The translations under genes were made by a program, and so were the position numbers. Shown one piece after another: positions 7 to 60,998 of a DNA stretch of 64,000 bases (position 1 is its first letter; each line of letters opens with the position of its first letter). Source of the stretch: an uncultured bacterium (GTDB lineage Bacteria > Armatimonadota > Abditibacteriia > Abditibacteriales > Abditibacteriaceae); the NCBI GenBank assembly GCA_963843795.1, contig CAWJLW010000006.1, positions 1,054,001-1,118,000 on the forward strand, in the 5' to 3' direction. The notes under the pieces were generated by a model that did not search any database, was not told where the DNA came from, and saw only the letters and a program-made list of their open reading frames with translations.

Positions 7-807
7 CTATCTGAAAGCGATACCGAACAATTGTTGCGCGTTGCGCGCAGTTTGCGCGCCCAAGTCTTCAATTGTCACGCCGCGCAATTCGGCCAAAAAT
101 TGCGCCGTATAGGCCACAAACGCCGGTTCGTTGGTCTTACCACGTTTGGGAACCGGCGCGAGATAGGGCGCATCGGTTTCAATCAGTAAGCGTTCCACAG
201 GACACCATTTTGCGACTTCGCGCACGATGTGCGAATTCTTGAAAGTCATGATACCGCCGAAACCCAGGTAAAAACCCTGCGCAAGTACTTGCTGAGCCAA
301 TTCCCTGTCGCCGGTGAAACAGTGCACCACGCCACGCGCACCCGGTACGCTTTTTATTGCGTTCAGTAAGACTTGGTCGGCATCGCGATTGTGTAAAACC
401 ACTGGCAAATCGAGTTCGCGCGCGATTTGCATTTGCGCGCGCAAAACTTCGATTTGTCGTGCGCGCGTCGCGCCCGGATATTCCGCGTGCGAATCGTCGT
501 AAAACCAATCCAGACCAATTTCGCCGACCGCCACCATGCGCTGATTTTGCAACAATTCGCGCAATCTTTGCGGCGAACCGTCATCGTCCCACTCCAACGC
601 GCGCTGCGGATGCACGCCCGCCGACGCATAAATTTCGACGTTATGCGTTGGTTGTTGCAACTGTTGCTGGATAAATGTGGCTGTTTCCAAGCTATCGGCG
701 ACATTGAGAATCGCGCTGACATTCGCGGCGTGCGCGCGCTGTAAAACCGCGTCCCAATCGGACGCCAACTTTTCATCGGCCAAATGACAATGAGAATCGA
801 AAAGCAT
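7..807 (-). CDS. tatD: TatD family hydrolase/DNase
   Basis: DSHCH, GVHP, VAVGEIGLD, GVVHCF and LLIETDAPYLAP motifs. Start moved to ATG 807 because the longer ORF reads through the intergenic palindrome. Confidence 0.93.
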   Translation of the reverse strand: MLFDSHCHLADEKLASDWDAVLQRAHAANVSAILNVADSLETATFIQQQLQQPTHNVEIYASAGVHPQRALEWDDDGSPQRLRELLQNQRMVAVGEIGLDWFYDDSHAEYPGATRARQIEVLRAQMQIARELDLPVVLHNRDADQVLLNAIKSVPGARGVVHCFTGDRELAQQVLAQGFYLGFGGIMTFKNSHIVREVAKWCPVERLLIETDAPYLAPVPKRGKTNEPAFVAYTAQFLAELRGVTIEDLGAQTARNAQQLFGIAFR

Positions 808-848
808 AAAATCGGCCTGCAAGTACTTGCAAGGTGTAAAACGTAAAA

Positions 849-2132
849 TTAGCGGTACCAATCATCGCGCCGCAGCGGCAAATTCAGTTGTCCGCGTTTA
901 TCTGGCTTGGCCAAAAGGGTTTGAAAAATTGTCACGCGGTTGGTGCTGAAACCATAGGCCGAAGACGCCATATACAAACGCCACACGCGATAAGTCGCTT
1001 CATCGACGCATTGCAGCGCTCGCTCGCGATTGAGTTCCAAATTTTTCACCCAGTGGCGCAGCGTCAAGGTGTAATGTTCGCGCAACGACTCGACATCGCG
1101 CACTTCCCAACCGGCTTCTTCGGCACGCTGCAACGTGAGGTTTATCGGCACGGTTTCGCCATCGGGAAACACATAGGTGTCTATGAAATTGCCCGCTGAG
1201 GGCGGCTGATTGGTCGCGTTATACGCGATGCCATGGTTGAGAAAAACGCCCTGCGGCTGGAGATGCTCCAGAGCGCGCTCGAAATATTCGGCGAGCTTGG
1301 CGCTGCCGACGTGCTCGAACATTCCAATGCTTGCCAGCGCATCGTATTCTTGTCTTGTCTCGATGTCGCGGTAATCGCGTAATTGCACGCGACAGCGTGC
1401 GCTCAATCCGGCTTCTCGAATACGCTGGTGCGCAAGTTCAACTTGCGGCTCACTGAGCGTGATTCCGGTCGCATCGACGCCGTAATATTTGGCGGCGTGC
1501 ATCACCAGAGCGCCCCAACCGCAGCCCAAGTCGAGCAATTTTTGTCCGGGCTTCAAGCGCAACTTGCGACAAATTAAATCTAATTTCGCGGTTTGCGCAC
1601 TATCCAAATCGTCATTTTCGCTGGCGAAATACGCGCAGGAATAAACCATTTGCGCGTCGAGCCACAGACTGTAAAATTCATTCGACGCGTTGTAATGATA
1701 AGCAACGGCTTGCAAATCGCGTTGCGGCGAATGGCGTTCGCCTTTGAGTTGCGCCGGTGCGCGCGGTGTCAGATCGGTTTTGCTGCGCGGCAAGCGCAAC
1801 AATTTGATGGCCGCGCCCAATTTGCGCCCGACGCCTAGACGATTGAGTTCGAGTTCATCGGCCAAGCGCAAAACCGCTTCGATGTCGCCTTCAATGTCGA
1901 ATTCGTCGCGCAAAAAGCCTTCGCCCAAACCGCGTTCATGGCCGGATGCGAAAATCGTGCGCAACGCGCCGGGAAATTTCAAAACGACTGTCGCTGCGCG
2001 CGGCTTTTGATCGGGCCACAACGTGCCGTCCCACAAACGAATCGCGACGTTTTGCGCGCGCTCGCGGCCGACCAAGCGGTCTAAAACCGAAAGCGTGATA
2101 TGGCGCGCCTGAGAATTATCGGATGAAAGCAT
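849..2132 (-). CDS. Cyclopropane-fatty-acyl-phospholipid synthase family SAM methyltransferase
   Basis: HYN..NEFY..WLD, YSCAYF, LDLGCGWG, SIGMFEHVG, ESLREHY..TL. Confidence 0.9.
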   Translation of the reverse strand: MLSSDNSQARHITLSVLDRLVGRERAQNVAIRLWDGTLWPDQKPRAATVVLKFPGALRTIFASGHERGLGEGFLRDEFDIEGDIEAVLRLADELELNRLGVGRKLGAAIKLLRLPRSKTDLTPRAPAQLKGERHSPQRDLQAVAYHYNASNEFYSLWLDAQMVYSCAYFASENDDLDSAQTAKLDLICRKLRLKPGQKLLDLGCGWGALVMHAAKYYGVDATGITLSEPQVELAHQRIREAGLSARCRVQLRDYRDIETRQEYDALASIGMFEHVGSAKLAEYFERALEHLQPQGVFLNHGIAYNATNQPPSAGNFIDTYVFPDGETVPINLTLQRAEEAGWEVRDVESLREHYTLTLRHWVKNLELNRERALQCVDEATYRVWRLYMASSAYGFSTNRVTIFQTLLAKPDKRGQLNLPLRRDDWYR

Positions 2133-2167
2133 AGTGCAAGTACTTGCAGAGTTGTTTACGATTGTTT

Positions 2168-3250
2168 TTAGTCGATCAGCGTTTCGCGCCCGCTTTGTGC
2201 GCTTTGATAAATCGCATCAAGCATTTTCATCAGGGTCGCGCCTTGGGTGGCGTCGGGATCGGGAGTTTTGTCTTCTAAAATGCAATTGATGAAATGTTGC
2301 ATCTGGTTTTGCCACATGTCGCCAAAGCCGACTTCGATCATTTCGCTGTGCGGTTCGCCGTTGCGGTCGGTGTGAATTTTCACGGTTTCGCCCCATTCGC
2401 AACCGGCGTCGGGCCCGAAAATTTCTACGCCCTGTTGATCTTTTTCGGTGTGAATCGCCCACGAAACCTCGACATTAATGGTTTGGCCACCTTCAAAGCG
2501 AATCAATCCGACCGCCAAATCTTCCACATCGAAGGGCGCATTGTGGTCATCGTTGCGCGTGTTGCCTTTACCCAAGCCCTTACCAAGTGGCCCGAACTGC
2601 GCATAGGTCGCGCCCATCGCTGAAGTCGGGCGCGGACAGCCCATCAGCCACCACGCCACATCCAACATATGGACGCCAATATCGATAAGCGGTCCACCGC
2701 CGCTTTGCTCTTGGGCCGTGAACCAAGTGCCAAAGCCTGGAATTCCATAACGCCGCAGCCAGTAAGCGCGCCCGTAATAAGGCACGCCCATCGTGCCGTT
2801 TTCAATCCATTGCTTGAGATACAAAGCCTGCGGTGAAAAACGTTTGACCTGCGCGACCATGCATTTGCGCTTAAATTTGTCGGCTGCAAAAACAATTTCT
2901 TGTGCCTGAGCAGCACTTGTCGCGAGCGGTTTCTCGCACAAAACGTGTTTGCCCGCTGCGAGAGCGTCCATCGTGACCGGATGATGAAGCATATTGGGTA
3001 AGCACACCGAAACCGCGTCGATGTCATCGCGCGCCAGTAGTTCGTGGTAATCGGCCAAAATCGTCGCATCCGGTGCGCCATTTTCTTGCGCGGCGATGCG
3101 AGCGCGCTCGCGGTCTAAATCGCACACTGCAACGACCTGCGCTTGTGGCACACGCGCGTAACTTTTGATGTGAGAGCGCCCAATCCCTGCGCCAATGACG
3201 CCGATTTTGACGGCTTTTTCTGTGGTTTTCCTTGCGTGTTGCGATGTCAT
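2168..3250 (-). CDS. Gfo/Idh/MocA family oxidoreductase
   Basis: GVIGAGIG, GKHVLCEKP, GGGPLIDIGVH; ATG at 3250. Confidence 0.9.
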   Translation of the reverse strand: MTSQHARKTTEKAVKIGVIGAGIGRSHIKSYARVPQAQVVAVCDLDRERARIAAQENGAPDATILADYHELLARDDIDAVSVCLPNMLHHPVTMDALAAGKHVLCEKPLATSAAQAQEIVFAADKFKRKCMVAQVKRFSPQALYLKQWIENGTMGVPYYGRAYWLRRYGIPGFGTWFTAQEQSGGGPLIDIGVHMLDVAWWLMGCPRPTSAMGATYAQFGPLGKGLGKGNTRNDDHNAPFDVEDLAVGLIRFEGGQTINVEVSWAIHTEKDQQGVEIFGPDAGCEWGETVKIHTDRNGEPHSEMIEVGFGDMWQNQMQHFINCILEDKTPDPDATQGATLMKMLDAIYQSAQSGRETLID

Positions 3251-3352
3251 AAAATTCAGATTTCCCAAGCGATTGTAGCACGATAGGTTCGCATCATAAA
3301 GCACGCGCGTGTGTTGTCGGGCTTCCTTTTGCGCTGCGAGTACTTGCAGCGG

Positions 3353-3381
3353 TTGCGCAAAGAGGAACGGCCCGTTATAAT
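3353..3381 (+). promoter_or_regulatory. Sigma70-type promoter of rpsF
   Basis: TTGCGC (3353-3358), 17 bp spacer, TATAAT (3376-3381). Confidence 0.7.
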
Positions 3382-3400
3382 AAAAAGGCTTTCAAATTTG

Positions 3401-3506
3401 TCCTTCCTGCTGTTTGCACGCCATGTGCAACAGTCGTATCCGGTTCGCCCGCGTGAGTGCGGGTTTTAGACATGAAAGCTGAACCGAGATCGTCCAGGGG
3501 GAGGTG
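3401..3506 (+). promoter_or_regulatory. Structured rpsF 5' leader, candidate S6:S18 autoregulatory RNA
   Basis: TCCTTCCTG (3401) can pair with CAGGGGGAGG over the SD. Internal stems: TGTTTGCAC/GTGCAACA, CGGTTC/GAACCG, CCCGC/GCGGG. Confidence 0.5.
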
Positions 3507-5441: not shown

Positions 5442-6401
5442 ATGAAAATTTTAGGTCTTGATCTGGGCGGCACGACTTTCGCCGCCGCCGCCGTCGATGA
5501 AAAAGGCGCGATTTTTCACGAAACTGAAGAAGATACGCGCCAGCACGATGGACCGGATATTCTTTTGCCGCGCCTGGCTCAAGCGGCGCGCTTGGTCAAT
5601 GAACAATGCGAAAGTGCTGAAGCAAGTACTTGCGGCGCGCTGGGCATTGGCGTTCCCGGCGCGGTCAAGCATCGCGATGGAATTTGTATCTATGCGCCGA
5701 ATCTGGAAGGATGGCGTGATTTATTGGTCGCCGCACCTTTGAGCCAGGACTTAAATTTGCCGGTTTTTCTCATCAATGACGCCAAAGCCGCGACCTTAGC
5801 CGAAGCGCGTTTTGGAGCCGGACGTGGCGCGCAATCGATTTTGATGTTGACGCTGGGAACCGGCATCGGCAGCGGCCTCACGATTGATGGCAAATTGCAT
5901 TTGGGCGCGACGGATAGAGGCTCGGAAGTCGGACATATTACAGTTGATATCAATGACAAGCGCGGCAGTGCGGGCAATGTCGGAACTTTGGAGGCGATGT
6001 GCGGGCGCGATGCGATTGTGTGGCGCGCGATGCGTCATTTGACATGGGGCACAAAATCGCAATTGATTGATTTATGCAACGGCGATTTGACCAAGCTTAC
6101 TCCAAAAATTATCGCGCAAGCCGCGATTCTGGGCGACGAAATTGCCACGTTAACGATGGTTGAAACCGCGAGTTACTTAGCTGTCGGCATCACAAACGTC
6201 ATTCTCACCGTCGATGTCGAGCGTGTAGTTATCGGTGGCGGTGTGGCGCAGGCGGGCGATAGTTTACTGACACCGCTGAAGCGCGCTGTGCAAGCGCGCA
6301 CTTCGCGCATGACCTTCGATGTCGAACAAATTGTGCCTGCGCAACTGGGGCCAGACGCCGGAATTGTCGGCGCGGCGCAGTGGGCACGCGAACAAATGTA
6401 A
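5442..6401 (+). CDS. ROK family sugar kinase (glucokinase-like)
   Basis: GLDLGGT, INDAKAA.LAE, LTLGTGIGSG, EVGH, GGGV. Confidence 0.9.
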   Translation: MKILGLDLGGTTFAAAAVDEKGAIFHETEEDTRQHDGPDILLPRLAQAARLVNEQCESAEASTCGALGIGVPGAVKHRDGICIYAPNLEGWRDLLVAAPLSQDLNLPVFLINDAKAATLAEARFGAGRGAQSILMLTLGTGIGSGLTIDGKLHLGATDRGSEVGHITVDINDKRGSAGNVGTLEAMCGRDAIVWRAMRHLTWGTKSQLIDLCNGDLTKLTPKIIAQAAILGDEIATLTMVETASYLAVGITNVILTVDVERVVIGGGVAQAGDSLLTPLKRAVQARTSRMTFDVEQIVPAQLGPDAGIVGAAQWAREQM

Positions 6402-6536: not shown

Positions 6537-9500
6537 ATGCAATTGTTGGATTTGCTGCATTCGATTCCGGTTCTGGCGCAGGCCGAACTGCAACTTAAAC
6601 CTCAAAACACGCTCTCGCTTTCAGGCGTGCCTTCGCCCGCGTGGGCTGTTGTTGCTGCCGACTTACAAAAGCGCAGCGGACGTGTGCTGATTCTGGTCGC
6701 GCCCAGCGAAGAAACGGCAGAAAACAGCACCAACGATTTGCGCGCCATTTTGGAAAATGAAGGCGAGGATAGCGTTCACGTGTTGTGGTATCCCGCGCCC
6801 GACCGCGACCGCGCGGGCGAAAACGCCGATCTCAATCCAGCTACGCCGCAACGTTTGGCCGCGCTTGAAGCGCTGCACAATGCCGCGCGTGGTGACGGCG
6901 ATCAATCGAAAGCGCTCATCATTGTGTGCACGATCACCGCGCTGGCTTATCCGACACTTCCACCCGATATCGCGCAAAGTGGCTACGATGAAATTGCGGT
7001 TGGCCAAACTCTACAACGCGAAGCGTTTATTGAACATCTCGCCGCGACTGGCTACGAGCGCGTCGTGCAAGTTGAAGCGCCCGGGCAGTTTGCTGCGCGC
7101 GGTGGTTTAATCGATTTTTTCGCGCCCGCTGAAGACGAACCTCTGCGCGTGGAATTGTTCGGCGAAGAAATCGATTCGCTGCGCCATTTCGATGTCGAAA
7201 CTCAGCGTTCGACCGAAAAAATTCAGCATTTTCGTTTGTCCTCGCCGCGCGAAATTTTTCTGACCGCGCAAAGCGGCGCACCGGTTGCCGAAGAATTGCG
7301 CGAGCGTTTGAAAGAACAAACTAAACGCTTGCGACAGCAAGGTGAAGACGACGCGGCGCAGAATTTGGAAACGCGCATCACGCGCGATATTGAGCGATTG
7401 GAGCAAGGTGTTTATTTTGCCGATTTGGAATTATACGCGCCGCTTTTGTATCCGCAACTGCCGACGTTATTGGATCATTTGCCCACTCAATCAATTGTGG
7501 TTTGGGCCGACCCCGAGCGCGCTGATAATCACCTGGGCCGCGTGCGCGAAGATTGGCTGGCGGCCAACGAGCGCCACGCCGAAACCGGCGAAGCCTTGCG
7601 TTTGCCGATTGCGCTAGCCGAATTCGAAGAGCTGCGCGAACGCGCTTGCAAGTACTTGCCGGTCGAATTTCACGTTGGTCAGGCCGATGGTGAAAATTTG
7701 GAAGTGCATCTGCCGCCCGCTTTTAGCGGCAAGTTGGATGCGTTCATCGAATATATCGGCAGCTGGACGCGGCGCGGTCGGAGAGCGGTCATTTCGACCA
7801 GTCACGCGCGTCGCGTGCGCGAAATTTTGGCCGATGGCGATGTGCGCCATGTGCATTTATTGGACGCGGTGAACGAAGTCGAAGACGGCGCGATTTTGAT
7901 TTTGCCTCAGCGCCTCACCGCCGGTTTTTCCCTTGGCGATGTTTTGGTTCTCACCGACAGCGAAATTTTCGGCTGGCAGCCCACGCAATCGCGCTTGAAT
8001 ACCAAACGGCGCGGCAAAAGAGGCGGCGAAGGTAAAAAGAAATGGAGTGAGAAATCGAGTGCTCTCACCAATTTAGCCGACCTGCGCGAAGGCGATTACG
8101 TGGTGCATATCAATCACGGCATAGCGCGTTATGGCGGCGTGACGCGGCGCGAAGTCGCGGGTGCCTTGAACGATTATTTGCAACTCGAATACGACGGCGA
8201 AGACCGACTGTATGTCCCTGTTGGGCAGTTGGATCGTGTGCAGAAATATCTTGGCCACGATGCAGTCGCGCCGCCGCTCACTTCGCTCAAAGGCGGTGGT
8301 TGGGAGCGCGCCAAAAAGCGCGTTCGCGAAGAAGCCGAGCGCGTGGCGAAAGAATTGGCCGCGCTTTATGCGGCGCGTGAACAAGCGGCCAAAGTGCCGA
8401 TTGGCGAAGATACGCCCTGGCAGCGCGAAATGGAATCGGCTTTTCCTTATGAAGAAACGCCTTCGCAGCTAACTGCGATCAAAGACACCAAGCGCGATTT
8501 AGAACAAGACAAGCCGATGGATCGCTTGGTTTGCGGTGATGTTGGCTTTGGTAAAACAGAAGTTGCTGTGCGCGCGGCGTTCAAAGTCGCGCAAGATGGG
8601 CGACAGGTTGCCGTTTTGGTTCCGACTACGGTTCTGGCGCAGCAGCATTACCAAACTTTCAGCGAGCGTTTGGCGCCGTATCCGATTCGTGTCGAAGTGC
8701 TATCGCGTTTTCGCACACCCGGAGAGGCGCGCAAAGTGATCGAAGATGTGCGCTTGGGCGCGGTCGATATTCTGATTGGCACACATCGCTTGCTGCAAAA
8801 CTCGCTGGAATTCCGTGATTTGGGCTTGGTCGTGGTCGATGAAGAACAGCGTTTTGGCGTGATGCAGAAAGAAAAACTCAAAGAAATGCGTCGCGAAGTC
8901 GATATTCTGACGCTTTCGGCCACGCCGATTCCGCGTACTTTGCAGTTTGCTCTGGGCGGAATGCGTGAAATTTCGCTCATCAACGATCCGCCGATTGGAC
9001 GTTTGCCGGTTCGCACCGTGGTTTCGCCGTTCAAAGACGAACTGATTCGCGGCGCGATTGAACGCGAGTTGGAGCGCGACGGGCAGGTTTATTACGTTCA
9101 TAATCGCATCGAGTCGATTTATCACATCGCGGAAAAAATCCGCCAATTAGTGCCGCGCGCGCGCATCGGCATCGGTCACGGACAGATGAGCGACGAAGAT
9201 TTGGAGCAAGTGATGCTCGACTTCGTGCATCATCGCACCGAAATCCTTCTGGCGACCACAATTATCGAAAATGGTTTGGATTTGCCAAACGTGAACACCA
9301 TTATCGTCGACCGCGCCGAGCGTTTGGGCCTGTCGCAGATGTATCAGTTGCGTGGCCGCGTCGGTCGCTCGAGCCGTCAGGCGTATGCGTATTTTCTGTA
9401 TGGCAGCCGAGGGCGCTTGAGCGAGGTCAGCGAAAACCGTTTCGCGGCGATTCAAGAGCACGCCGATTTGGGCGCGGGTTTTAAAATCGCCATGCGCGAT

Positions 9501-16902: not shown

Positions 16903-16908
16903 AGTCAG

Positions 16909-16940
16909 AAAAGGCGCTGCAAGTACTTGCAGCGCCTTTT
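16909..16940. terminator. Perfect 32-bp motif-centred palindrome; bidirectional terminator between convergent genes
   Basis: AAAAGGCGCTGCAAGTACTTGCAGCGCCTTTT. Confidence 0.8.
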
Positions 16941-16958
16941 TTGCTATTTGCTAGCTTT

Positions 16959-23751: not shown

Positions 23752-25842
23752 TTAGCCGGGCATCAGTTGGTGCCCGACGCGGCCTTGCCAGCAATCGATG
23801 CAAATCCACAGCAGCATCATGAAAACGTCGCCCAGAGCCAAGCCCAAAAAGCCGGGTAGGGCTTTTTTATAAGAATCGTAACCGCCGAATTTGGTAATTA
23901 AGGTTTTGCACGTCCAACCCGTGAACATCGAAAACCACAAAGTGCTGGCGGGATAAGTCACGGCCATCACGTAACCAATCGGGTGCAATGGGAACCATGC
24001 GAAGTGAGCGCGGAGAGCGGTGAGAACCAGTGTGAAACCGATGCCGACCGAAAGCCAAATCCAGTTAATCCAGCTCACATCTGGAACGGGTTGACTTAAA
24101 AGTTTGGCGTTGCTGGCCATTTGTTTCGGGCCTGATTCACGCAGCCAGCCTTGCATGCTCAGGCCGCCATTATCGTAACCCATGCGCACGTTCATCTGCA
24201 GGCCGATGACGAAGGTGATGACAGTGACGGCCAGTATTAGTAAGCCCAATTTGCGTCCCGAAATGCCTCGGTCGTAAGCTAATTTCCAGCTTTGCACAAA
24301 GCTTGGCATCAAGGAAGCGCGGTAATCTTGCACCGTCGAGGCTTCGATTACTGCAGCGGGAATAATGCCTTGCGCGGTCGACATCATCGAGCCGGGACCG
24401 GTGCCGACCAATTGTCCCCACGTCGCGAGTGGCATCCACGAGTGATGCACGAAAATCAATCCGCCCGCTGCGACAACACGCGAAAGTACAATGGCAATCG
24501 TGAGCCACGAAACCCATGCGACCGTTGCCAGTGGAATTGAAACGCCCGCGTAATGCGACCAGCCGATGAGCGCAAGCATTCCCAGCACAAATCCCCAGAA
24601 CGCGATCGGATAACTCATCACTTCGCCGCGTTCGCCAATTTGCGCCCGTTCGCGGAAAGTGGCGCGCCGCCAAATATGGGCGAAATGTTCGCGCGCCGTC
24701 CACATAATAATGCCAACAAAGGCCAGATGCGCGCCCGCTTCTTGATAATTGATGAAAATTTTGTTGCCGGTCATCACACCGTTGGGTAGCGAACTGGGTG
24801 GAAAACCGAGGGTGTAAGCGCCCATAAGCTGAAATTTCATCAGCCAGTAAAACGCCCAGATCGAAAACGAAATTTCAGTCGGCAGCAAAAACGCCATGCC
24901 TATGGCAATTGGCCACACCACAATCGACACGCCGCCGATCTGGTTCCACGGCGCCTCGGTAAACAGCACGCCGGTATCCACCGACATCGAAATGCTCGGC
25001 AAATCGGGGAAATACAAGTGCAAACCGTTCAAGCCTTGAATCGCAACCGCGACCGTAAAGCCAATCCACATCACCGGTTCGCGAAAAAAGGGCGGCCACA
25101 AACCGCTGGTGCGACTGCTCGGAATGTCGTCCAAACCTTCCGTTAAGGCCAGCGGCAGTTTCAAAAGCGGAAAGCTTAAGGCTTCGCGTTCGCCCCACTG
25201 CGCCCGTAACATTACGCTCATGCAGCACAGCGTCCAGAACGAAACCAGCATCATGCCGCCCCACATTAATAAGGGCAGCGCCCATTGCGCCCACGGAATT
25301 TGCCCGCCCGGTGGCAAGCCAACGTACCACCCTTCGACCAATTTCGCATTGTAACTGCCATCGGAGTTCAATGCGGGCGTCATCCAAGTCGGCAGTACCC
25401 TGAGCACTTCGAACCAGCCGTTTTCTTTGGAAGCGTAATAAAACGAACCAATGATAAACGAAGTGAAATAATTGTTGCCGCCAATGCCCGGAATCAAGCA
25501 AGAAAACAAGCACGAAATGTAAACCACCAACATTTCATCGCGCGAAAACCGATAACGCGGCCCCGCAAGTACTTGCAACAAGGGATTGACGATTAAAAGC
25601 AAAACCAGCAGCGCGCCGACCGCGCCTGGCGGGAGATGAGTCGCGCCCAAAAAGGTGTTGGTAAATTTGTAATCAACGACGGGAATCAAGTAGCCAAAAG
25701 CCGCACCAATCGCCAGACACAAGAAGACCACGCGCGGCGTGATGGCGCGCGTCGCGGGTACGATGCCCGGTGGCCACATCGAAGGTTGAGCGTTAACAAT
25801 TTCTTCGTCTTGAACGTCAAGTGATGGTGGCGAAACGGGCAT
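23752..25842 (-). CDS. Multi-pass membrane protein, DUF6785/DUF6784-like
   Basis: Many TM segments; QW...E.L.FPL..LP, WFPLHPIGY and GLALGD patterns; family name from recall. Confidence 0.7.
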   Translation of the reverse strand: MPVSPPSLDVQDEEIVNAQPSMWPPGIVPATRAITPRVVFLCLAIGAAFGYLIPVVDYKFTNTFLGATHLPPGAVGALLVLLLIVNPLLQVLAGPRYRFSRDEMLVVYISCLFSCLIPGIGGNNYFTSFIIGSFYYASKENGWFEVLRVLPTWMTPALNSDGSYNAKLVEGWYVGLPPGGQIPWAQWALPLLMWGGMMLVSFWTLCCMSVMLRAQWGEREALSFPLLKLPLALTEGLDDIPSSRTSGLWPPFFREPVMWIGFTVAVAIQGLNGLHLYFPDLPSISMSVDTGVLFTEAPWNQIGGVSIVVWPIAIGMAFLLPTEISFSIWAFYWLMKFQLMGAYTLGFPPSSLPNGVMTGNKIFINYQEAGAHLAFVGIIMWTAREHFAHIWRRATFRERAQIGERGEVMSYPIAFWGFVLGMLALIGWSHYAGVSIPLATVAWVSWLTIAIVLSRVVAAGGLIFVHHSWMPLATWGQLVGTGPGSMMSTAQGIIPAAVIEASTVQDYRASLMPSFVQSWKLAYDRGISGRKLGLLILAVTVITFVIGLQMNVRMGYDNGGLSMQGWLRESGPKQMASNAKLLSQPVPDVSWINWIWLSVGIGFTLVLTALRAHFAWFPLHPIGYVMAVTYPASTLWFSMFTGWTCKTLITKFGGYDSYKKALPGFLGLALGDVFMMLLWICIDCWQGRVGHQLMPG

Positions 25843-28221: not shown

Positions 28222-29373
28222 ATGGCAAATTGTTTTCCCGTGCGCCGTGCGCTCCAAAAGTCGCCACGAAAACCTCTGCAAGTACTTGCAGGCGCTTTTG
28301 CACTTTCTTTCGCGCTTACGAGCACAGTTTCGGTGCGCGCCCAAAACGCCGCGCCAGACATTACAACGAAACAAAATGCCGCGCCTGAAATTACAGACGA
28401 TGCCGAAGCGCGCGCGTGGGAAGAGGCGCGCGTCAGTTTGCAATTGAAACAAGTCCCGCTGTCGCAAATGTTGTGGCTGTTAGGTGCGCAAAGCGCGGTG
28501 CGCTTTCGTTATGCGACTGTGCCCGACATGGAAACCAGCGTCGAACTCAAAGATGCGCTGTTGCGACCGACGTTGCGCGATGTGCTGGCTACGTTAGGTT
28601 TTCGCGTGCAGCCGAGCGCGCTGGGACGCATTCCCTTTACCACGCCAACTTTGTGGGTCGCGCGCGAAAATCGTTTGCCTGCTTTGATGGGCGCCAATAC
28701 GCAAAGTGCCGGTAATAGTGCCAGTAACGCGAGGAAAAGCGCGCAGAACTTGGTCGCTGCGCTGGCTCCCAAACCACAAGTCGCCACACCAACGTGGCAG
28801 ATGTGGACGAAAGTTGATGCGCCAGACATCAATTGGATGCGACCTGCGATGCCTGCGGTGGGCGCGTTTTCCGGAACTGTTGGCCCCAACGGGCAAACTT
28901 TGAAATTCGATAGTAAAAATTCGGCGTCCGAAAAACCGACGCCGGGCGTGCCGGGCCTCGATCCGGTCGGGGTGCGCGTGCAATGGCGCGGAACCGGAGC
29001 GCGCGAAGAAAGTGGCTGGTCAACGCTTGATTTCGCACTCGATGAAACTCCGGCGCGCCCTGGCGTGCAGATGAAACTGCCTGACAGGTTGCAAAGCACT
29101 GATGGCAGCGTGCGCCTGCGCTGGCCATTAGAACTGCGCCGCGTGCCGCCGCGCGTGCAATTGTGGCTCGAAACCGACCGAACCGGGGCATTTTATGTCA
29201 ATGGCGCGCGTATGTTAAGCTGGACGGGCGCGCGTCGCCTTGATCTCAGCAGCGTATTACAAAGTGGAACCAATATTCTGGCCATCGTGTGGAGCGCGCC
29301 AAGTGACAAAAACGCCCCAGAGCAGGCGTCGCCAGTACCGCAATTGCGTTATGAATGGTTGGCTGGCGAATAA
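28222..29373 (+). CDS. Hypothetical exported protein
   Basis: Signal-like N-terminus ending VRA-Q; upstream TATAAT (28192) and GAGG SD; C-terminal YVNG...LQSGTNILAI resembles a jelly-roll. Confidence 0.7.
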   Translation: MANCFPVRRALQKSPRKPLQVLAGAFALSFALTSTVSVRAQNAAPDITTKQNAAPEITDDAEARAWEEARVSLQLKQVPLSQMLWLLGAQSAVRFRYATVPDMETSVELKDALLRPTLRDVLATLGFRVQPSALGRIPFTTPTLWVARENRLPALMGANTQSAGNSASNARKSAQNLVAALAPKPQVATPTWQMWTKVDAPDINWMRPAMPAVGAFSGTVGPNGQTLKFDSKNSASEKPTPGVPGLDPVGVRVQWRGTGAREESGWSTLDFALDETPARPGVQMKLPDRLQSTDGSVRLRWPLELRRVPPRVQLWLETDRTGAFYVNGARMLSWTGARRLDLSSVLQSGTNILAIVWSAPSDKNAPEQASPVPQLRYEWLAGE

Positions 29374-33131: not shown

Positions 33132-36100
33132 ATGCAACTACGATTCAAAAAATTATTCTGCCGAAATCTCGTTTGTTCGACCGTCGCTTTGGGTTGCGCT
33201 GCAACCTCGCAAGCTCAAAACCCTGCCATGCCAGCCGCATCGCATCCGCCAATTCCTATCGAATTTAATCTGCAAGAAGCCGGTTTCGTCACGCTCGTCA
33301 TCGAAGACGCGCAGGGCCATCGCGTGCGCAATTTGGTTTCCGAAACGCCGTTCGTCAAAGGCCAAAACACGGCGTGGTGGGACGGTTTGGACGACATCGG
33401 GCGCGACCCGCGCGCCTATGATCGTGGCGTATATTCGATTCCGGGCAAAATCGTCGCGCCCGGACAGTATCGAGTGCGCGGTTTGTGGCGTCCCGAACTG
33501 AAATTGCGTTATCAGCTCACACCTTACAATCAGGCCAAATTGCCTTGGCGAACGGCGGATAGCAGCAGCGGTTGGCTTACCAATCACACTCCGCCGCGCG
33601 CGATCTTATTTGTGCCGCCAAAAACCGCGCCCACGCGCGATAAGCAGCCGACTTCCGATGGTGCGCAAATTCTGGTCGGTTCATCGGTTTCCGAGGGTGG
33701 TTCGGGGCTGGCGTGGTTGGATGCCAACGGGAATAAATTGCATGGTCAAGAATGGCTGGGCGGCGTATGGACGGGCGTGCAATATCTGGCGCGCAATGCT
33801 GGCCCGAACGCGAGTCAGGGCGTTTATGCTTATAGCGTTCATGCCTGGGACGACGAATTGCGTTTGCAAGAGCTGCTTAATAAGCCCGGAGCGGCGGCGC
33901 GCGACACGCGCATGGGCGCGGGTGATGATGTGCCGGTTTTGTCGCCGACGTGGAAGTTTCCACCCGGCACCAAGCTCAACGATCACACCGACGAACGCGG
34001 CGTAGGCGGGCTGGCAGCTTTCAATGGCCTCATCGCGGTTTCTCTTCCCATCACAAACCAAATTTTGTTCGTCGATGGCAAGCAACATCGCGCGATTGGC
34101 ACCGTGCCTTTCCGCAATCCGGGTGCGCTCGCATTCGATAATCAAGGCCGCTTGCTCTTATTCTCTGGCAAACGACTGCTGCGCTATACGTTGCCAGCCG
34201 ATTTGAAAACCTTTGTCGAACCCAGTGCCTTGCCCGAAGGTGAAGCGTTGTCGAAAGCGAATTGGAAAGCCACAGCCGATAAGAATTCTGAAACAGCGCA
34301 GGCAGCGATTGATCGTAGCGATGCAACGCGTTACGAATCGCGCGAATCGCAACATCCGGGCGATAGCCTGATGATTGACATGGGCGCGCCACAGCGTTTC
34401 ACCAGTGTGCAAATTTTCACGCCTTGGCCGCCCGACTGGACGCGCGCCTTTGAAATTTATGCCTCGAATGATGGGGAAAATTGGGGTGTACCGCTTGCCA
34501 AAGGCAAAGGCCAACCCGACCATTTGACAATTCCTGTGCCGCCAACAACGGCCCGTTATTTCAAGATCGTGCAAACCGGCAACGCCAACAATTGGTGGGC
34601 GATCAACGAAATTACACTTTTCAATGATGAACCTTTTGATGGGCCAGTGGCAGCGCCTAAGCCTTTGCCCGCGCCGCGAATTCTCATCGCCAGCGGTCTG
34701 GATGAGCCGCAGAACATCGAAATTTCGCAGAACGGCAATTTGTATATCGCCGATTGGGGACAACATCATAACGTGCGGGTATTTGATGCCAATGGCAAGT
34801 ACTTGCGTAGCATCGGTAAGCCGGGCGTGCCGCGCGCGGGCACTTATGACCCGACCAAAATGCACCATCCAACCGGCGTGACGCTGGACGACAAAAATCA
34901 GTTGTGGGTCGCCGAAGAAGATTTTCAGCCCAAGCGCGTTTCGATTTGGAACGCGAACAACGGACAATTTGTCAAAGCGTTTTACGGGCCGCAGCGTTAC
35001 GGCGGCGGCGGCGAACTCGATACCAAGGATAAAAATCTTTACTACTACGATGGGATGAAATTCGCGCTGGATTACCAAAAACAAACCAGCCATCCGGTTT
35101 CGATTTTCTACCGGCCCGCGCCCGGCGAAGTGACTATCGGCGGCGATTCGGTGAACGCATTTATGCCGCAAACGCCGCTTTATTTCGGCGGCCAGCAATT
35201 CTTCACCAACGCTTACAATTCCAATCCGACCAACGGCACGAGCATTAGCGGAATCTGGCAGATGATGCCCGATGGCGTTGCGCGACCGGTCGCCGTGATG
35301 GGACAGGCCAACGATTACGCATTATTCCGCGATTTGGGCGAACAAAAACAAAACTTGTCGGTGCGTTGGACGGGCGTTGTGAGCGCGCCGCAAAGTGGCG
35401 ATTATACCTTTACCACGCTGTCCGATGACGGAGTGCGATTATCAATCGGCTCAAAGCTGGTTATTGATAATTGGACGCCGCACGGCACAACTGAAGATAA
35501 AGCGACCATTCATCTCAACGCCGGCCAAAGTGTGCCCATAAAATTGGAATATTTTCAGGGTGGTGGCGGTGGAACAATTCATTTGTATTGGCAAATCGCA
35601 GGTGGCGAACGCACTGTCGTACCCACAACGGCGCTACGCGCTTCAGCCAATGCGCAGGGGCAAGGATTGCGTGGCGAATATTTTTCCGGTATCAATTTCG
35701 ACAAACCGCGTGCGACACGAATTGATGCGACTATTGACTTTAACGATCCGGCATTGCCGCCGGTCGCGGGCAAAGCCGAATTTGCCGCGCGCTTGCCACA
35801 AGGTGCAAATCCGGGCGCGGATGCCAATGAAAACTCGGTATTTTTCTGCTGGCAAGACTTGAATTCAGACCGGAAAATGCAAGGCGAAGAAGTCACTTTT
35901 CAGAAACTCCAGAGTGGGCGTATTGAAGGCGTTACCGTGATGGGCGACGGCGCGTTTATCGTTTTTAACCACAACCAAAAAACTGTGCGTTTCGCGCCCA
36001 AGCTTGATAAAAGCGGCGTGCCACGTTATGACATCCGTGTGCCGCAAGTACTTGCCACGGGCGTGCAGCATCCGACAACGACCGGTGGTGGTCAGGCGTT

Positions 36101-39209: not shown

Positions 39210-40340
39210 TTAGGAAAGTTCGCGATAAAAATTTTCCCAGCGCGCGGCAATTTTCGGTGCGCCGAATTGCTCGACGATGCGCGCGCGGCCATTGCGTCCC
39301 AAAAGCGCGCTCAATTTGGTATCTTGCAAAACGCGTTCAATAGAATTGGCCAGCGCATTGGCATTAGCGGGTGGCACCAAGAGGCCGGAAATTTCGTTCT
39401 CGATTAAATCGGTCAATCCGCCGACTTTGGTTGTAATCGTTGGGCGTTGCAAAAGCATCGCTTCGGCGGGCGCGAGGCCGAAACCTTCTTGCAGCGAGGG
39501 CAGCACGAATACATCGGCGCTTTGCACCAAAGGCATCATCTGCGCGTGCGGCAAAACGCCCGCGAAAACCACGCGCTCTTGAAGACCCAGCTGCGTTGCC
39601 AGTTTTTCCAGTTCCGCGCGGCGCGGGCCATCGCCTAACAATAACAAATGAGGAAATACGTTGCGCGCTGCAAGTACTTGCAGCGCTTTCAATAAATGCT
39701 GATGACCTTTTTCCGGTGCTAAGCGCGCGACGGTGACGATTAACGGCGCGTCGTCGGGAACACCGATTTGCGCGCGTATTTGCATACGATTTAAGTGGGA
39801 ATCGGGCGCGAGAGTCGTAGGAAATGAGTTGGGAATCCACGTCGGATTGAGGTCCGGAACATGAGCGTTAAAATGTTCTTTCACCGGTCGGCTCACGGCG
39901 CTGCATCCATCGAAGCCGCGTCGCAAAACGGTTGGCAACAATCGCGCGGCGAGTTGTCCGGCGCGGCTGCCCTGAAAGAAATCGAAATCTGTGTTGTGCA
40001 AGGTGCAAACGCGGCGCGTTTTCGCGGGCAACGGGCGCGCGGTGGCGACTGCGAAGTTGGCGAAAAGCAGATGAGAATGCAGGATGTCGTAATCGCCGCG
40101 TCGCGCCAATCGTTGCACGCGTTGCGCGCTGCGCACAAAATTCCAACGCCGCGCGTAATCGAGATGAAGGCGATGCACGCGCACGCCTACCATTTCCAGA
40201 TCACCTTGCAAATCGTAAGGTGGCCACAGAACCGCGACGTGGTTTTCGAGGCCGCGCGCGTTTAGTTCGGGCAGCAAATTCAGCAAAACCTGCTCGGCCC
40301 CAGCGCGCCCCAGCGATTCAATAACGTGCAAAACTTTCAT
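39210..40340 (-). CDS. GT4 family glycosyltransferase
   Basis: GAEQVL, VARLAPEKG, DVFVLPS..EGFGL..AEAM. Confidence 0.92.
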   Translation of the reverse strand: MKVLHVIESLGRAGAEQVLLNLLPELNARGLENHVAVLWPPYDLQGDLEMVGVRVHRLHLDYARRWNFVRSAQRVQRLARRGDYDILHSHLLFANFAVATARPLPAKTRRVCTLHNTDFDFFQGSRAGQLAARLLPTVLRRGFDGCSAVSRPVKEHFNAHVPDLNPTWIPNSFPTTLAPDSHLNRMQIRAQIGVPDDAPLIVTVARLAPEKGHQHLLKALQVLAARNVFPHLLLLGDGPRRAELEKLATQLGLQERVVFAGVLPHAQMMPLVQSADVFVLPSLQEGFGLAPAEAMLLQRPTITTKVGGLTDLIENEISGLLVPPANANALANSIERVLQDTKLSALLGRNGRARIVEQFGAPKIAARWENFYRELS

Positions 40341-45353: not shown

Positions 45354-47966
45354 CTATGGCTTGACGGTGAAATAGCGCGCGGCGAAATCTAAAAACGTGG
45401 GCCAGTTCGGGCCAACAGTGTGGCCACCACTGTGCTGACGAAAAGCCAGATCGCCTTTGACTAATGAGGTTTCGATGGGTGGCATTTCACTTGTCCCCAA
45501 ACTCTTTTTGCCCAGCAGTTGATAAACCGGCCCGGCTTCGACAGCAGCTAAAAACTGACCGCGACTATCAACCCAGTTGCCCTCGACGTTGGGCGAACCG
45601 GCGCTGATAAAAACCGGACGTGGCGCGCATAGGGCAATCAGTTCATGCGCATCAACTGGCAAATCGTTGGCAGTCAATGGGCCGGCATATTTGAGAAAAT
45701 TGCCCGCCATCCAATGATATTCGCCCGATGAGGCCACATTTTCGACCATTTCACCGAAATTGCGACGATGCAATTTCGCGCCGCCTTCGCCGGACGAGCC
45801 GACCAGAGCGATGGCAAAACGAGAATCATAAGCCATCGTAACCAGCGCAGCTTTGCCATAGCGCGACAATCCTTCAATCGCCACGCGACGCGCATCCACA
45901 CTTTTGTCGCTTTCCAGATAATCCAGTGTACGGCTCGCACCCCACGCCCACGCGCGCAAAGCTCCCCAATCATCGGCCTTGCGCGCTTGACCTTTGTTGA
46001 CCAAACCGATAATGCCCTGACGCAACCCGGCCCCGTTATCGGCTTGAATGCTGGCCGGAATTAGAATGGCATAGCCCCAGCCTCGCGCAAGTACTTGCTG
46101 CTGCCAACTGGGTTCGCCGCCAGCATTGGCGTTGTTCAGTGGCGTTCCCGGTCGGCGTGGAAAATTGAAGCCGAATTCCATAATGACCGGCACCGGCCCG
46201 ACTGCGTTCGCGGGTGTGGTCAGCGTTAAATCAATATCGACTTTGACATCGGGATAAGCCGAATTATCGACGTGACCAATAAGTTTTTTGGTGATGACCG
46301 CGAATTCCCCATTGGTTTCGGGCGTCGTTTTGACAACTTCCCAATCGACTTTTGGCGTGTTGGCGGGCACGCGCCCATAAACTTCGCGGTCGAAATCCTC
46401 GATGATTTCAGACCGACGCGTATTCCACCACTGCGCAGGCGTGGTCACCGCGCGCCCATTCTTCAAAATTAGCGGGTCGGGCAAGCTGATGTAAGATTTG
46501 GCTTTGGTTTCGTCGCTATTGGCGGCGTTGGGTGCTTTGGGGTCGCCGCTCGGGCCGGGCCGCAGCGCCGTGATGCCCAGAAGCTGCAGCATTGCTTGAT
46601 GATCCTGTTCGGCAGAAATGGGAGTCGCAGCGCGCGGTGTTGAGGTGTTGTCGGCTGAAGTGTTTGTCATTGTCTTAATATCGGGCGCATTGCCCTGAGC
46701 GATTTGCTGAAGCCACTGATTCGAACGCTGATAATACGCGGCTTGCGCGTTGTTGTGGCCTTGATGGTCGGAGCGCGGCATGACCAGCAGTTCTTTTGGC
46801 CCTTGCATCTGGTTGAACGCTGCGATAACGCCGTGACTCGGACAGGTCTCGTCAATCAATCCGACTGCAACTAAGGCCGGAGATTTAATGTGACGAGCGA
46901 AATTCACTACATCGAAATACTTGCTGGTCGCCAAAACTTTGTCTTTATCTTTGCCTTGCGCTTGATAAATCCACTGCGGCCAACCCGGTTTGCGTCCGAC
47001 CAGTGGACCGGTTTGGTCGCAGCCCGCAGGCACATTGGCGATGAGCGCAGTGATTTTTGGATGCAAGCCAGCGATCATAATTGATTGCAAGCCGCCTTGA
47101 CTGGTGCCCATTACGACCAGCGTTTTTCCATCCCAATCATCGCGATGGATCAAATACTCCGCCGCGCGATAACACGATAAATACATGCGCAGAAAGTAAC
47201 TGGTTTCGCGGTCTTCGTTGCCGATGGCCGGATAATTTTTCAAAGCATTGTTCGACTGTTGTGTATAAAAATCGGGCGTTTCATCAATCGGCAAATCGTG
47301 CGCATTGATGTTGAGAGCCAGCCAGCCTTGACGTGCTTGATTAGTGACCCAATCTTTGTTCAATCCGTAAACGCCCGCCCACTGCACAATGAGTAAAGCC
47401 GGAAATTTCGCGCCGGTTTTGGGCCGTGCGACTTGTCCCTGGATTTTGGTGCCGCGAATATTATCGAGTGTGATTTTGGAATATTCAACCGCATCATTGC
47501 CGCTCTCGCCACGTTCCAAAACCGGATCTGTTGGAATCTTATTTAATTCGGCGACTTTGGCTTTCCAAAACTCATCAAAATCATCCGGCGCAGGTGCCGA
47601 CGGCGCAATTTTTTCGGGTGCAACAACCGCTCCGGCCAAGTTCTTAATCGGCGCTTTAGCTGGCACATTCGCAGTCAATTCCGCTAAAACGCTACCCGCT
47701 TCATCGAGTCGGGTTTCCAAGTCGGCGACATTATTTTCGAGCGTCAATTCGCCGCGTCCAATTTCGGTCAACTGGCCTTTTTTCAGCACGTAAGCAATTT
47801 TTTTGATCTCTTGCGCGCCTTCGCCCTTAACTTCCAAATGCCAGACAATTTTCTCACCGATGGCATAAACACTGTTGGGTTTGGCCGCGCTGACAGTAAT
47901 TTCCTGAGCGTGACAACTGGCACAAAACAAAGCGACGGCAAGCATGAATCCGAACAATGATCTCAT
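45354..47966 (-). CDS. Secreted double esterase: CE7-like acetylxylan esterase fused to CE15-like glucuronoyl esterase
   Basis: P.DFDEFW, GTSQGG, YFD.VNFA, DETCP (CE7-like); AWAWGASR.LDYL, GLSRYGK, HELIALCAPRP (CE15-like). Confidence 0.85.
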   Translation of the reverse strand: MRSLFGFMLAVALFCASCHAQEITVSAAKPNSVYAIGEKIVWHLEVKGEGAQEIKKIAYVLKKGQLTEIGRGELTLENNVADLETRLDEAGSVLAELTANVPAKAPIKNLAGAVVAPEKIAPSAPAPDDFDEFWKAKVAELNKIPTDPVLERGESGNDAVEYSKITLDNIRGTKIQGQVARPKTGAKFPALLIVQWAGVYGLNKDWVTNQARQGWLALNINAHDLPIDETPDFYTQQSNNALKNYPAIGNEDRETSYFLRMYLSCYRAAEYLIHRDDWDGKTLVVMGTSQGGLQSIMIAGLHPKITALIANVPAGCDQTGPLVGRKPGWPQWIYQAQGKDKDKVLATSKYFDVVNFARHIKSPALVAVGLIDETCPSHGVIAAFNQMQGPKELLVMPRSDHQGHNNAQAAYYQRSNQWLQQIAQGNAPDIKTMTNTSADNTSTPRAATPISAEQDHQAMLQLLGITALRPGPSGDPKAPNAANSDETKAKSYISLPDPLILKNGRAVTTPAQWWNTRRSEIIEDFDREVYGRVPANTPKVDWEVVKTTPETNGEFAVITKKLIGHVDNSAYPDVKVDIDLTLTTPANAVGPVPVIMEFGFNFPRRPGTPLNNANAGGEPSWQQQVLARGWGYAILIPASIQADNGAGLRQGIIGLVNKGQARKADDWGALRAWAWGASRTLDYLESDKSVDARRVAIEGLSRYGKAALVTMAYDSRFAIALVGSSGEGGAKLHRRNFGEMVENVASSGEYHWMAGNFLKYAGPLTANDLPVDAHELIALCAPRPVFISAGSPNVEGNWVDSRGQFLAAVEAGPVYQLLGKKSLGTSEMPPIETSLVKGDLAFRQHSGGHTVGPNWPTFLDFAARYFTVKP

Positions 47967-54158: not shown

Positions 54159-54202
54159 AAGCGCGTTAGCAAGTACTTGCGCAAGTACTTGCTAACGCGC
54201 TT
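54159..54202. repeat. Perfect 44-bp palindrome with two tandem copies of the 12-mer
   Basis: AAGCGCGTTA-GCAAGTACTTGC-GCAAGTACTTGC-TAACGCGCTT. Confidence 0.85.
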
Positions 54203-59564: not shown

Positions 59565-59573
59565 TTGTGTGTC

Positions 59574-59688
59574 TTCAGTGCGCCGCAAAGTCTGCAAAGG
59601 GAAAAGAAAAATGAGAAAACAGCCCGGCAGGTACTTGCAGGGCGAATTCTTCCAAGCTCTTTGCGTGCTTCGTGTCCTTTGCGGTGAA
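59574..59688. repeat. ~115-bp inverted-repeat element with central GCAGGTACTTGC (copy 3)
   Basis: Left TTCAGTGCGCCGCAAAGTCTGCAAAG; right reverse complement TTCACCGCAAAGGACACGAAGCACGCAAAG; motif variant at 59627-59639. Confidence 0.5.
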
Positions 59689-59690
59689 TG

Positions 59691-60998
59691 TTATTCTTCA
59701 AATTCAAAAGCAATTTCGCCAACATGAACCAAATCGCCCGGCTTGACGCCCGCTTTTTTCATATCTTCCAACACGCCCTGCTGCTCCAGCAGGCGATGTA
59801 CATAAATCACCGCTTCGTGGCTTTGAATGTCAAAACGCTCAATCGTGCGTTCGAGCAAACCGCCACTCGCTTCCCATTCGCTCATGCCATCGGCGTAGCG
59901 CGCGATTTCTTTAATGCCGAACGGCTTCTGCGGATCAACGCGCGTGAGGGTTATCTCCGGCGGAATCTCGACGTTGGCATTTTCCGCACGCGCCACATCG
60001 ACCAGTTCCTGAATGCGCCACATCAGCGGCGTCAAATTTTCGCCGGTCGCAGCGGAAATCTCGAAAACTTCGCAGCCGCGCGCCAGTAATTTCGCTTTGA
60101 ATTGCGCCACTTCATCTTGATATTCTTCGTCGCCCGCGATGGCGTCAATTTTATTGATCGCCACTAATTGCGGACGTTCGATCAATTCGGGCTGCCACAT
60201 TTTTAATTCGCGATTGATGCTCATAAAAGCGCGCCAAAGCTGGGTGCAAGTACTTGCACTCGCGTCCAGCAGATGCACGAAAACCGGCGCGCGTTCGATG
60301 TGCTTTAAAAACTGATGGCCTAAGCCCGAACCTTTGTGCGCGCCACGAATCAGGCCCGGAATATCGGCTGCCACGAACTGATTCTCGGCATCCAAGCGCA
60401 CCACGCCCAAGTTCGGCACTAAAGTTGTGAACGGATAATCGGCGATCTTCGGAGTGGCCGCAGAAACCGTTGAAATTAATGTGCTTTTGCCCGCGTTGGG
60501 CAGGCCGATAAAGGCCACGTCCGCCAGAATTTTCAAGCTGAGTTTCACGTTGCGCAGTTCGGCTTTGCCACCGCGCTCGGCAAATCGCGGCGCCTGCCGC
60601 GTCGAAGAAACAAAGCGTGGATTGCCCAAACCGCCCTTCCCTCCGCGTGCCACGACAACGGTTTGGCCATCGGCCAATAAATCGGCCAGCACATTTCCAG
60701 TTTCGCTGTCAATAACCTGGGTGCCAAGCGGCACGGAAAGCACGATATCTTCGCCATCGCTGCCTTTTTTGCGCCCGCCCTGTCCGTGTTGCCCGCGCTG
60801 CGCTTTGTAATGCCGCTTGCGTGAAATGTCGATTAGCGTTTTGACTTGCACCGCAGCGCGCAAAATCACGTTGCCGCCATCGCCGCCATCGCCACCGGAC
60901 GGCCCGCCATACGGCATATATTTCTCGCGGCGAAATGCGACGACACCGTCGCCGCCGTCGCCACCTTTGAGTTCTAACGTCGTTTCATCTATAAACAT
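59691..60998 (-). CDS. obgE: GTPase ObgE
   Basis: MFIDE..GGDGG.G.VAFRREK, GLPNAGKST, DYPFTT, DIPG, NKID, C-terminal OCT domain. Confidence 0.97.
   Translation of the reverse strand: MFIDETTLELKGGDGGDGVVAFRREKYMPYGGPSGGDGGDGGNVILRAAVQVKTLIDISRKRHYKAQRGQHGQGGRKKGSDGEDIVLSVPLGTQVIDSETGNVLADLLADGQTVVVARGGKGGLGNPRFVSSTRQAPRFAERGGKAELRNVKLSLKILADVAFIGLPNAGKSTLISTVSAATPKIADYPFTTLVPNLGVVRLDAENQFVAADIPGLIRGAHKGSGLGHQFLKHIERAPVFVHLLDASASTCTQLWRAFMSINRELKMWQPELIERPQLVAINKIDAIAGDEEYQDEVAQFKAKLLARGCEVFEISAATGENLTPLMWRIQELVDVARAENANVEIPPEITLTRVDPQKPFGIKEIARYADGMSEWEASGGLLERTIERFDIQSHEAVIYVHRLLEQQGVLEDMKKAGVKPGDLVHVGEIAFEFEE

Follow-up and report, generated by a model that had tools for sequence, protein, structure and literature searches.

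How a single palindromic word comes to stand in all three reading frames of core genes, and what it does there, is the question raised by a 64,000-nucleotide stretch of DNA (contig CAWJLW010000006.1, positions 1,054,001 to 1,118,000) from an uncultured member of the Abditibacteriaceae (Armatimonadota), in the following called the window. It contains 42 exact copies of GCAAGTACTTGC, a 12-bp perfect palindrome, spanning positions 281 to 63370. A first-pass annotation, made from the letters alone, had proposed that the word enters genes by substitution at tolerant positions, as the highly iterated palindrome HIP1 and the DNA uptake sequences (DUS) do, and that it acts at the level of DNA and not only as a terminator. 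The closest named relatives of the ObgE protein encoded in the window are Abditibacteriaceae.

Abundance of the palindrome

The source genome (G000, 4.3 Mb; other G numbers denote genomes of relatives) has 2567 exact copies, corresponding to 0.60 per kb or about one per 1.7 kb, and only about 500 one-mismatch variants. About 70 % of the copies (1800) are intergenic, 752 lie within called genes and 15 at gene edges, so that the intergenic density is 14-fold the coding density. At least one coding copy is borne by 605 of the 3433 genes, which were called with our own script and whose starts may be misplaced. Exact GCAAGTACTTGC is present in at most three copies in each of 60 relatives.

Viral loci were considered as phages of this host and rejected: among 129 new loci with the 14-mer, 17 overlapping ones have at least two copies, and all of these are phage DNA of low GC in which GTAC is used normally. 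On four contigs of low-GC tailed phages (L398, L416, L422 and L458) GTGCAAGTACTTGCAC is repeated just 5' of genes, which is probably a phage operator and a convergent match.

Copies within genes

The 752 coding copies are read as QVLA (496), KYL (141) or ASTC (115). A codon shuffle yielded a mean of 0.15 coding copies and a synonymous shuffle preserving the proteins a mean of 9 (20 shuffles each). In the proteome the three motif peptides are enriched 3- to 34-fold: QVLA occurs 567 times against 38 expected, ASTC 133 times against 4 and KYL 309 times against 114, and 504, 115 and 188 of these, respectively, are spelt with the codons of the motif. Rare codons are among them (GTA, 8 % of Val; CTT, 9 % of Leu). 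Motif-free relatives do not retain the peptides or their codons. Furthermore, the density of coding copies drops with protein conservation, from 0.33 to 0.13 per kb. All ten in-gene copies listed in the first-pass annotation proved to be exact and to lie in the open reading frames (ORFs) and frames given for them (QVLA six times, ASTC and KYL twice each), and its argument from the three frames against a protein-level or codon-usage cause is borne out by the rare codons and by both shuffles.

Substitution versus insertion

The length of the genes around the copies was compared with G009, a relative with another word, in 404 orthologue pairs covering 1.22 of the 3.83 Mb of that genome. Anchoring kept 80 of 99 G000 sites (19 dropped), and 51 of 214 G009 sites were dropped. 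Net length is unchanged at 47 of the 80 anchorable G000 sites (67 % in controls matched by local divergence), and a gain of 4-5 residues is seen at four of them (3.4 % in these controls). Amino-acid identity between G000 and G009 is 0.29 at the sites versus 0.59 at random positions.

A metagenome scan gave loci of at least two other species (K and M) sharing the same 10-bp core; as the K, M and R loci were picked with an 18-mer that includes the motif, their motif density is inflated. The exact core is retained in K at 25 of 48 ungapped G000 coding sites (controls 3.8 %) and in M at 21 of 49 (controls 3.0 %). Where the amino acid is the same, the codons within the motif, among them rare ones, are identical in 88 of 111 cases (19.7 expected) and 87 of 107 cases (30.1 expected) in the two same-word species. 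In a comparison of K with M over 48 gene pairs, ungapped sites proved identical in 19 of 22 and 19 of 25 cases and otherwise differed by 1-4 bases; just 2 of 49 site look-ups were gapped. Three-way alignments of 36 genes had one gapped site in 27, and some sites differ by synonymous changes alone.

For ObgE, Mfd, TatD and the ROK kinase, whose alignment had been proposed as a check, no insertion linked to the motif was found; the ROK and ObgE sites, however, lie in loops of variable length, again with no gain tied to the motif. The anchor-to-anchor span in ROK is 63 residues, the same as in 24 other homologues, the commonest span being 59. As far as these alignments can tell, insertion is not the origin of the coding copies, because no gain is tied to the motif, same-word species differ by point changes and few sites are gapped. 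On this point the first-pass annotation was right.

A mobile source would be a tiny hairpin of the REP/RAYT, Ssn/NTS or Rickettsia-palindrome type that inserts or stamps its copies. Repetitive extragenic palindromes (REP) with their RAYT proteins form many palindromic hairpins between genes. The same holds for NTS/dRS3 with the Ssn nuclease (PMC11893778; here and below, published systems are compared as far as the cited parts of the papers describe them). Long hairpins with A/T tails are topped by 520 of the 1800 intergenic copies (29 %), a few copies form tandem or overlapping pairs, and there is a marginal excess of net length gains at G000 sites; all this would suit such an element. Unlike in these systems, the hairpin arms vary from site to site, and in 610 of the 752 coding copies pairing goes no further than one base beyond the word, leaving hundreds of armless copies in genes. 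No small GIY-YIG gene was found in G000; a search for Y1 transposases gave one weak match there and none in G006, and copies do not cluster beside a gene of either type. Together with the lack of excess 4-5-residue gains and with sites shared in register across lineages and altered base by base, this largely refutes a mobile hairpin for the coding copies and makes it very improbable overall.

Dialects and shared sites

Seven of the 27 Abditibacteriaceae genomes carry five different words. In G001 the word is CAAAGTACTTTG (1231 copies), in G009, G015 and G019 TCGAGTACTCGA (2770, 2510 and 2261 copies, respectively), and in G012 it has the core GAGTACTC. The word of G006 is a 26-bp palindrome composed of two AAGTACGGTCGA halves, unlike the 8-12 bp words of the relatives; it has 1340 half-sites, 83 % of them intergenic. 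A reading of the latter as non-palindromic was rejected, since 272 of 363 half-sites have a partner. Perfect two-fold symmetry, GTAC included, is common to every dialect, and the density of AGTACT is 0.75-1.23 per kb in six carrier genomes with four different words (G000, 0.75).

Of 78 ungapped G000 sites, 12 have the G009 word in register in the G009 gene, with a match at 10 or more of its 12 bases (0.07 expected), and in the reverse comparison the G000 word was found at 9 of 157 G009 sites. This re-spelling in place alters residues: QVLA becomes RVLE or RVLD and KYL becomes EYS in G009, and KYL becomes KYF in the mfd gene of G001. No G006 word was found within 20 bp of 43 aligned G000 coding sites (0.3 expected; 0.42 of the 3.6 Mb of G006 compared). 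Since sites are shared in register across lineages, a common origin of the carriers' words is implied by the alignments. The proposal that sites are created by substitution thus stands and was understated, as sites are also kept and re-spelt in place, and coding copies are far sparser than intergenic ones.

In an ObgE tree the carriers fall into one clade (100/99) together with G003, G004 and G017, with the base of this clade left open. No such word was seen in the DNA sampled from these three; an apparent G017 word was rejected as a local tandem repeat, and at 13 ungapped sites (six more were gapped) G017 has no intact AGTACT remnant. The word seems to have been lost in G017. In the same genome the G001 word occurs 18 times, and these copies, concentrated on a few contigs (C59, C26), may stem from transfer from a carrier, from bin contamination or from remnants. 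G016 (Abditibacterium) has the repeated GC-rich words ACACCAGCCACGTCC and CGCCAAATGGCC, which may be a REP-like repeat.

GTAC core and orphan methyltransferase

The GTAC centre suggests a ratchet of the HIP1 type, in which an orphan methyltransferase would mark the core and methylation-directed repair would convert the flanks, up to about one site per kb. This density is predicted by Elhai's model (PMC4390886). G000 encodes one beta-type methyltransferase (PF01555, DPPY; C6:2517365-2518135, minus strand) with no conserved neighbour; within the family 21 of the 27 genomes have the enzyme, one of them in broken form, and a search of 374 other Armatimonadota genomes gave no match. AGTACT is nearly absent from the genera g2 and g5, with one copy in the 6.0 Mb of G005, and GTAC has an observed/expected ratio of 0.08 in the motif-free genera and is regained in three related genomes without the enzyme. 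Strong avoidance of GTAC is reported from genomes with GTAC restriction-modification systems (PMC2588503). In G005, G008, G011, G014 and most g2 genomes both GTAC and CTAG are below one tenth of expectation, and both are recovered in the clade of G010, G021 and G023.

However, CTAG is purged and regained in step with GTAC, so that the purge is not specific for GTAC, and G013, G016 and G027 lack the enzyme and are nevertheless GTAC-poor. The methyltransferase is also present in motif-free genomes and is conserved while the words differ. Its nearest solved relatives (RsrI, MboIIA, CcrM and others) are too distant for its target to be read from them, and matches in PDB, PADLOC, Atlas and plasmids gave no target either. 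A neutral ratchet, moreover, leaves unexplained the phased flanks that extend 40 bp out (see below). We regard such a ratchet as quite unlikely, and the link between GTAC purge and methyltransferase, drawn from sequence comparison, as a lead. A search for 5-methylcytosine methyltransferases in G000 gave no candidate, the adenine methyltransferase search being confined to the beta-type; a Vsr-type shift from GTAC to GCAC was not seen, and a PabI search had no match in these genomes nor in any control. CGATCG is strongly depleted in G000.

Spacing, hairpins and phased flanks

The copies are spread more evenly than at random (variance/mean 0.53-0.63). Next to an intergenic copy the coding density is 0.08 per kb, and it reaches 0.47 per kb at a distance of 2-3 kb, so that gaps are filled; in all four data sets (G000, G009, K and M) gene ends adjoining motif-bearing spacers have about one third as many copies. 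Within genes of G009 copies repel each other, with 8 gaps under 300 bp versus 35 expected. After a short-range depletion pair distances are flat from 1.2 to 8 kb and without long-range periodicity (coarse 400-bp bins). No gradient from origin to terminus is seen, with 47-83 copies per 100 kb outside the first bin. The two largest copy-free gaps are 26 kb each, and both hold genes which, to judge by their sequence, are insertion-sequence-like and restriction-like.

Long hairpins are most frequent between convergent genes (198 of 289 copies), less so in co-directional spacers (296 of 1238) and rare in divergent ones (23 of 266). Since they concentrate between convergent genes, part of the spacer copies likely serve secondarily as terminators, as judged from gene orientation; a terminator scan found 43 sites versus 38 in shuffles, which is weak by itself. 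This distribution and the higher intergenic density would also suit the idea that the word has no function except as a hairpin in RNA or as a terminator, or else reflects a preference for peptides or codons. As sole cause it is refuted, and we consider it hardly credible: coding copies without arms are retained, 236 of 452 divergent spacers bear a copy, and the peptide and codon version fails on the three frames, the rare codons and the nulls of 0.15 and 9 against 752. A role at the DNA level beyond termination, as claimed at first pass, is upheld by the same armless and divergent copies.

Around hairpin-free coding copies AA/TT/AT dinucleotides peak at about 9, 20, 30 and 40 bp on both sides relative to phase-matched controls. 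The period is 10-10.5 bp in G000, G009, K and M; the phased A/T DNA spans about 90 bp. The amplitude is 6.2 in G000 compared to 1.3 and 0.1 for two control words. A putative protein that reads the palindrome in double-stranded DNA is likely, because the word is symmetric, it is retained at the DNA level, its flanks are phased and bendable and its density is about one per kb.

Such a protein may belong to the chromosome itself. The word would then be bound by a dimer that organises the chromosome (a nucleoid protein, a helper of topoisomerase or a loader of condensin); this protein would wrap some 90 bp about once per kb, and selection on the spacing would retain and create sites. Such a protein explains as well as or better than DNA uptake why all dialects, the 26-bp palindrome of G006 among them, are perfectly two-fold symmetric and why the 10.5-bp phasing runs symmetrically to about 40-50 bp per side; even spacing and gap filling fit too. 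The sequence bound by SlmA in Escherichia coli is GTGAGTACTCAC, also a 12-bp palindrome with an AGTACT centre, and the G012 core GAGTACTC equals its inner 8 bp. Here, in contrast, sites number thousands, there is no terminus gap and no TetR domain was found in G000, which argues against a SlmA-like protein. Likewise, a second ParB was not found, and the single ParB in G009 and in G012 leaves no Noc-like paralogue. For the wider class of organising proteins, a symmetric 130-bp gyrase motif with flanks of 10.75-bp periodicity is comparable (PMC6379681), and an analogous argument has been made for selection on HIP1 (PMC5861425). The lack of an origin-terminus gradient and of periodicity up to 8 kb, and the close relatives G017, G003 and G004 without the word in the DNA sampled, speak against it, and we hold this explanation as possible but doubtful. 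A chromatin-like positioning code, in which a putative protein family would wrap about 90 bp of phased DNA per 12-bp palindrome every kb, and in which changes of its specificity would have re-spelt thousands of sites, overriding residues of core genes, from a GTAC seed purged in sister genera, is offered as an unlikely extension.

A putative tag for self-DNA

We favour, at about an even chance, a tag for self-DNA in natural transformation, recognised via the putative reader protein; this rests on the likeness to uptake sequences, on the competence genes and on the role in transformation proposed for HIP1. The palindrome enters genes through point changes at codons that tolerate them and is then retained. 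Its reader would most probably act in natural transformation and bend some 90 bp around the word, and uptake or recombination of tagged DNA would be more frequent. Such biased uptake or recombination, a molecular drive as proposed for DUS and the uptake signal sequences (USS), could turn near-matches into exact copies until about one site stands in every kb. If the preference of the reader shifted, existing sites would be the nearest matches and might be rewritten, amino acids included; copies in spacers would be used secondarily as the top of terminator hairpins.

In several respects the word resembles DUS of Neisseriaceae and USS of Pasteurellaceae. These occur about once per kb (0.80-0.89; PMC2817400), evenly spread and sparser in genes (PMC2817400, PMC3630211, PMC7811141, PMC1939737), and show peptide enrichment with frame bias, permissive positions and an origin by mutation, not insertion (PMC2817400, PMC3630211, PMC7811141). 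The DUS of Simonsiella occur in dyad pairs (PMC3630211). Lineage dialects, terminator hairpins and AT-rich flanks are likewise shared, and so are competence genes: G000 holds ComEC, DprA and a ComEA-type HhH gene. In addition, a type IV pilus-like cluster (C6:389000-402500), whose ATPases, platform protein, prepilin peptidase and several pilins were named by eye, is a candidate place for a DNA receptor, and 31 prepilin-like proteins are encoded in G000. Differences are the palindromic nature of GCAAGTACTTGC, which is unrelated to the cores GCCGTCTGAA and AAGTGCGGT (PMC2817400), the symmetric flanks phased over about 90 bp and the host phylum. With HIP1 and its alternates the word shares hyper-abundance of a palindrome, use of all three frames, conservation beyond codon selection (PMC4390886, PMC5861425), replacement by different words in certain lineages, a density near one site per kb and an orphan methyltransferase in the genome. 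HIP1 is proposed to act in transformation (PMC13756078, 10.1101/2024.09.10.611283) and raises its efficiency (10.1101/2024.09.10.611283). Unlike GCGATCGC or the GC-rich alternates, the word has 12 bp with an AT-rich GTAC core, belongs to another phylum than cyanobacteria, is 70 % intergenic with terminator-like arms, and lacks quasi-periodic long-range spacing in our data. By analogy, the palindrome is a member neither of DUS/USS nor of HIP1 and would work like both.

Several points weigh against a self-DNA tag. Every feature demonstrated here fits an intracellular DNA-binding protein equally well. ComEC and DprA are present in 30 and 29 of 31 genomes, with or without the motif, so that they permit an uptake model and do not discriminate; DprA was not found in the motif-free G017 or the motif-bearing G001, both of which are incomplete genomes. 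The profile of ComP-type receptors (PF16732) matched in none of five genomes, nor in any control genome, and the reader searches in G000 (TetR, small GIY-YIG, Y1 transposase, second ParB) gave no candidate. DUS and USS are not palindromic (PMC2817400, PMC1939737); the phased flank of the present word is symmetric, and the AT-rich segments known from USS are shorter. In genes of G000 the copies show no mutual repulsion, with 56 gaps shorter than 300 bp where 53 were expected. Finally, net length gains of any size are marginally commoner at G000 sites than in controls (25 % vs 17.8 %, P about 0.05), an excess not seen at the sites of G009 itself.

Features of the window

The eleven coding copies and two intergenic arrangements are listed in Table 1; the other 31 copies are mostly intergenic or lie in ORF extensions 5' of the likely start.

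Table 1 Copies of GCAAGTACTTGC in the window and what was observed at them
Feature	Position	Reading or strand	Observation
tatD	281..292	QVLA, minus strand	Two orthologues align ungapped, without the palindrome
ROK kinase	5622..5633	ASTC	Variable-length loop; ASTC retained in an 87 %-identical homologue
mfd	7648..7659	CKYL	G001 has CAAAGTACTTTG in exact register (SKYF); codons of motif-free relatives unrelated
Intergenic copy atop a 17-pair hairpin followed by T's (terminator-like)	16906..16943	plus strand	
696-aa gene	25565..25576	QVLA	Same-word species retains 11 of 12 bases; six other homologues with different residues
28222 gene	28278..28289	N-terminal signal-peptide-like stretch	LQVLA retained in 3 of 5 homologues
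1419-aa gene, first copy	34795..34806	KYL	
1419-aa gene, second copy	36044..36055	QVLA	
GT4 glycosyltransferase	39670..39681	QVLA	
903-aa gene	46087..46098	QVLA	
Head-to-tail copy pair, centre of a single intergenic hairpin	54169..54192		
proB, final codons	58459..58470	QVLA	Absent from the first-pass list
obgE	60246..60257	ASTC	Variable-length loop; no net insertion compared to nearest relatives

The gene caller starts the 28222 gene at 28333 and thus beyond its copy. We count this copy as coding because most homologues retain LQVLA at the same N-terminal position; of the remaining two, one differs there and one lacks the N-terminus. The best NCBIfam matches concur with the names tatD, ROK, mfd, GT4 and obgE, and for the window genes none named DUF6785 or CE15 was found. 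Rfam had no match across the whole window. No sequencing run of RNA was found to contain this DNA. Three DNA sequencing runs gave short and thin cover of positions 1-20000, with one single-contig difference within a motif at 7655, which may be an error.

At 20346-20365 and 20419 a one-mismatch copy (GCAGGTACTTGC type, the commonest class of variants) stands in a second, similar hairpin at a distance of about 60 bp from an exact copy. The minus-strand ORF at 18940-20328 encodes a protein with a weak, sub-threshold match to a VanW-like domain. The rpsF-ssb region (3512-5234) and rpsB (62137-64000) have no coding copy, which fits the lower density in conserved genes.

Significance for the Abditibacteriaceae

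In the literature searched, no paper on GCAAGTACTTGC, on a palindrome of Abditibacteriaceae or on an uptake sequence of Armatimonadota was found; the search covered this word and openly available papers, with the other dialect words, subscription papers and bioRxiv supplements outside it. To our knowledge, genome-wide self-tags at such density are described only from Neisseriaceae, Pasteurellaceae and cyanobacteria. The word of the Abditibacteriaceae is apparently an independent case of a dense genome-wide tag in another phylum. It stands between two known kinds, being palindromic like HIP1 and resembling DUS and USS in its dialects, its use in terminators and its A/T flanks.

Because seven of 27 genomes carry five words, the sampled DNA of three near relatives has none and sites can be traced from word to word, the family offers a natural series for how such motifs arise and persist and how a switch of dialect sweeps a genome. 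Furthermore, a pressure at the level of DNA alters protein sequence here, as in the changes from QVLA to RVLE and from KYL to EYS or KYF at the same codons, and this matters both for annotation and for the reading of substitutions as protein adaptation.

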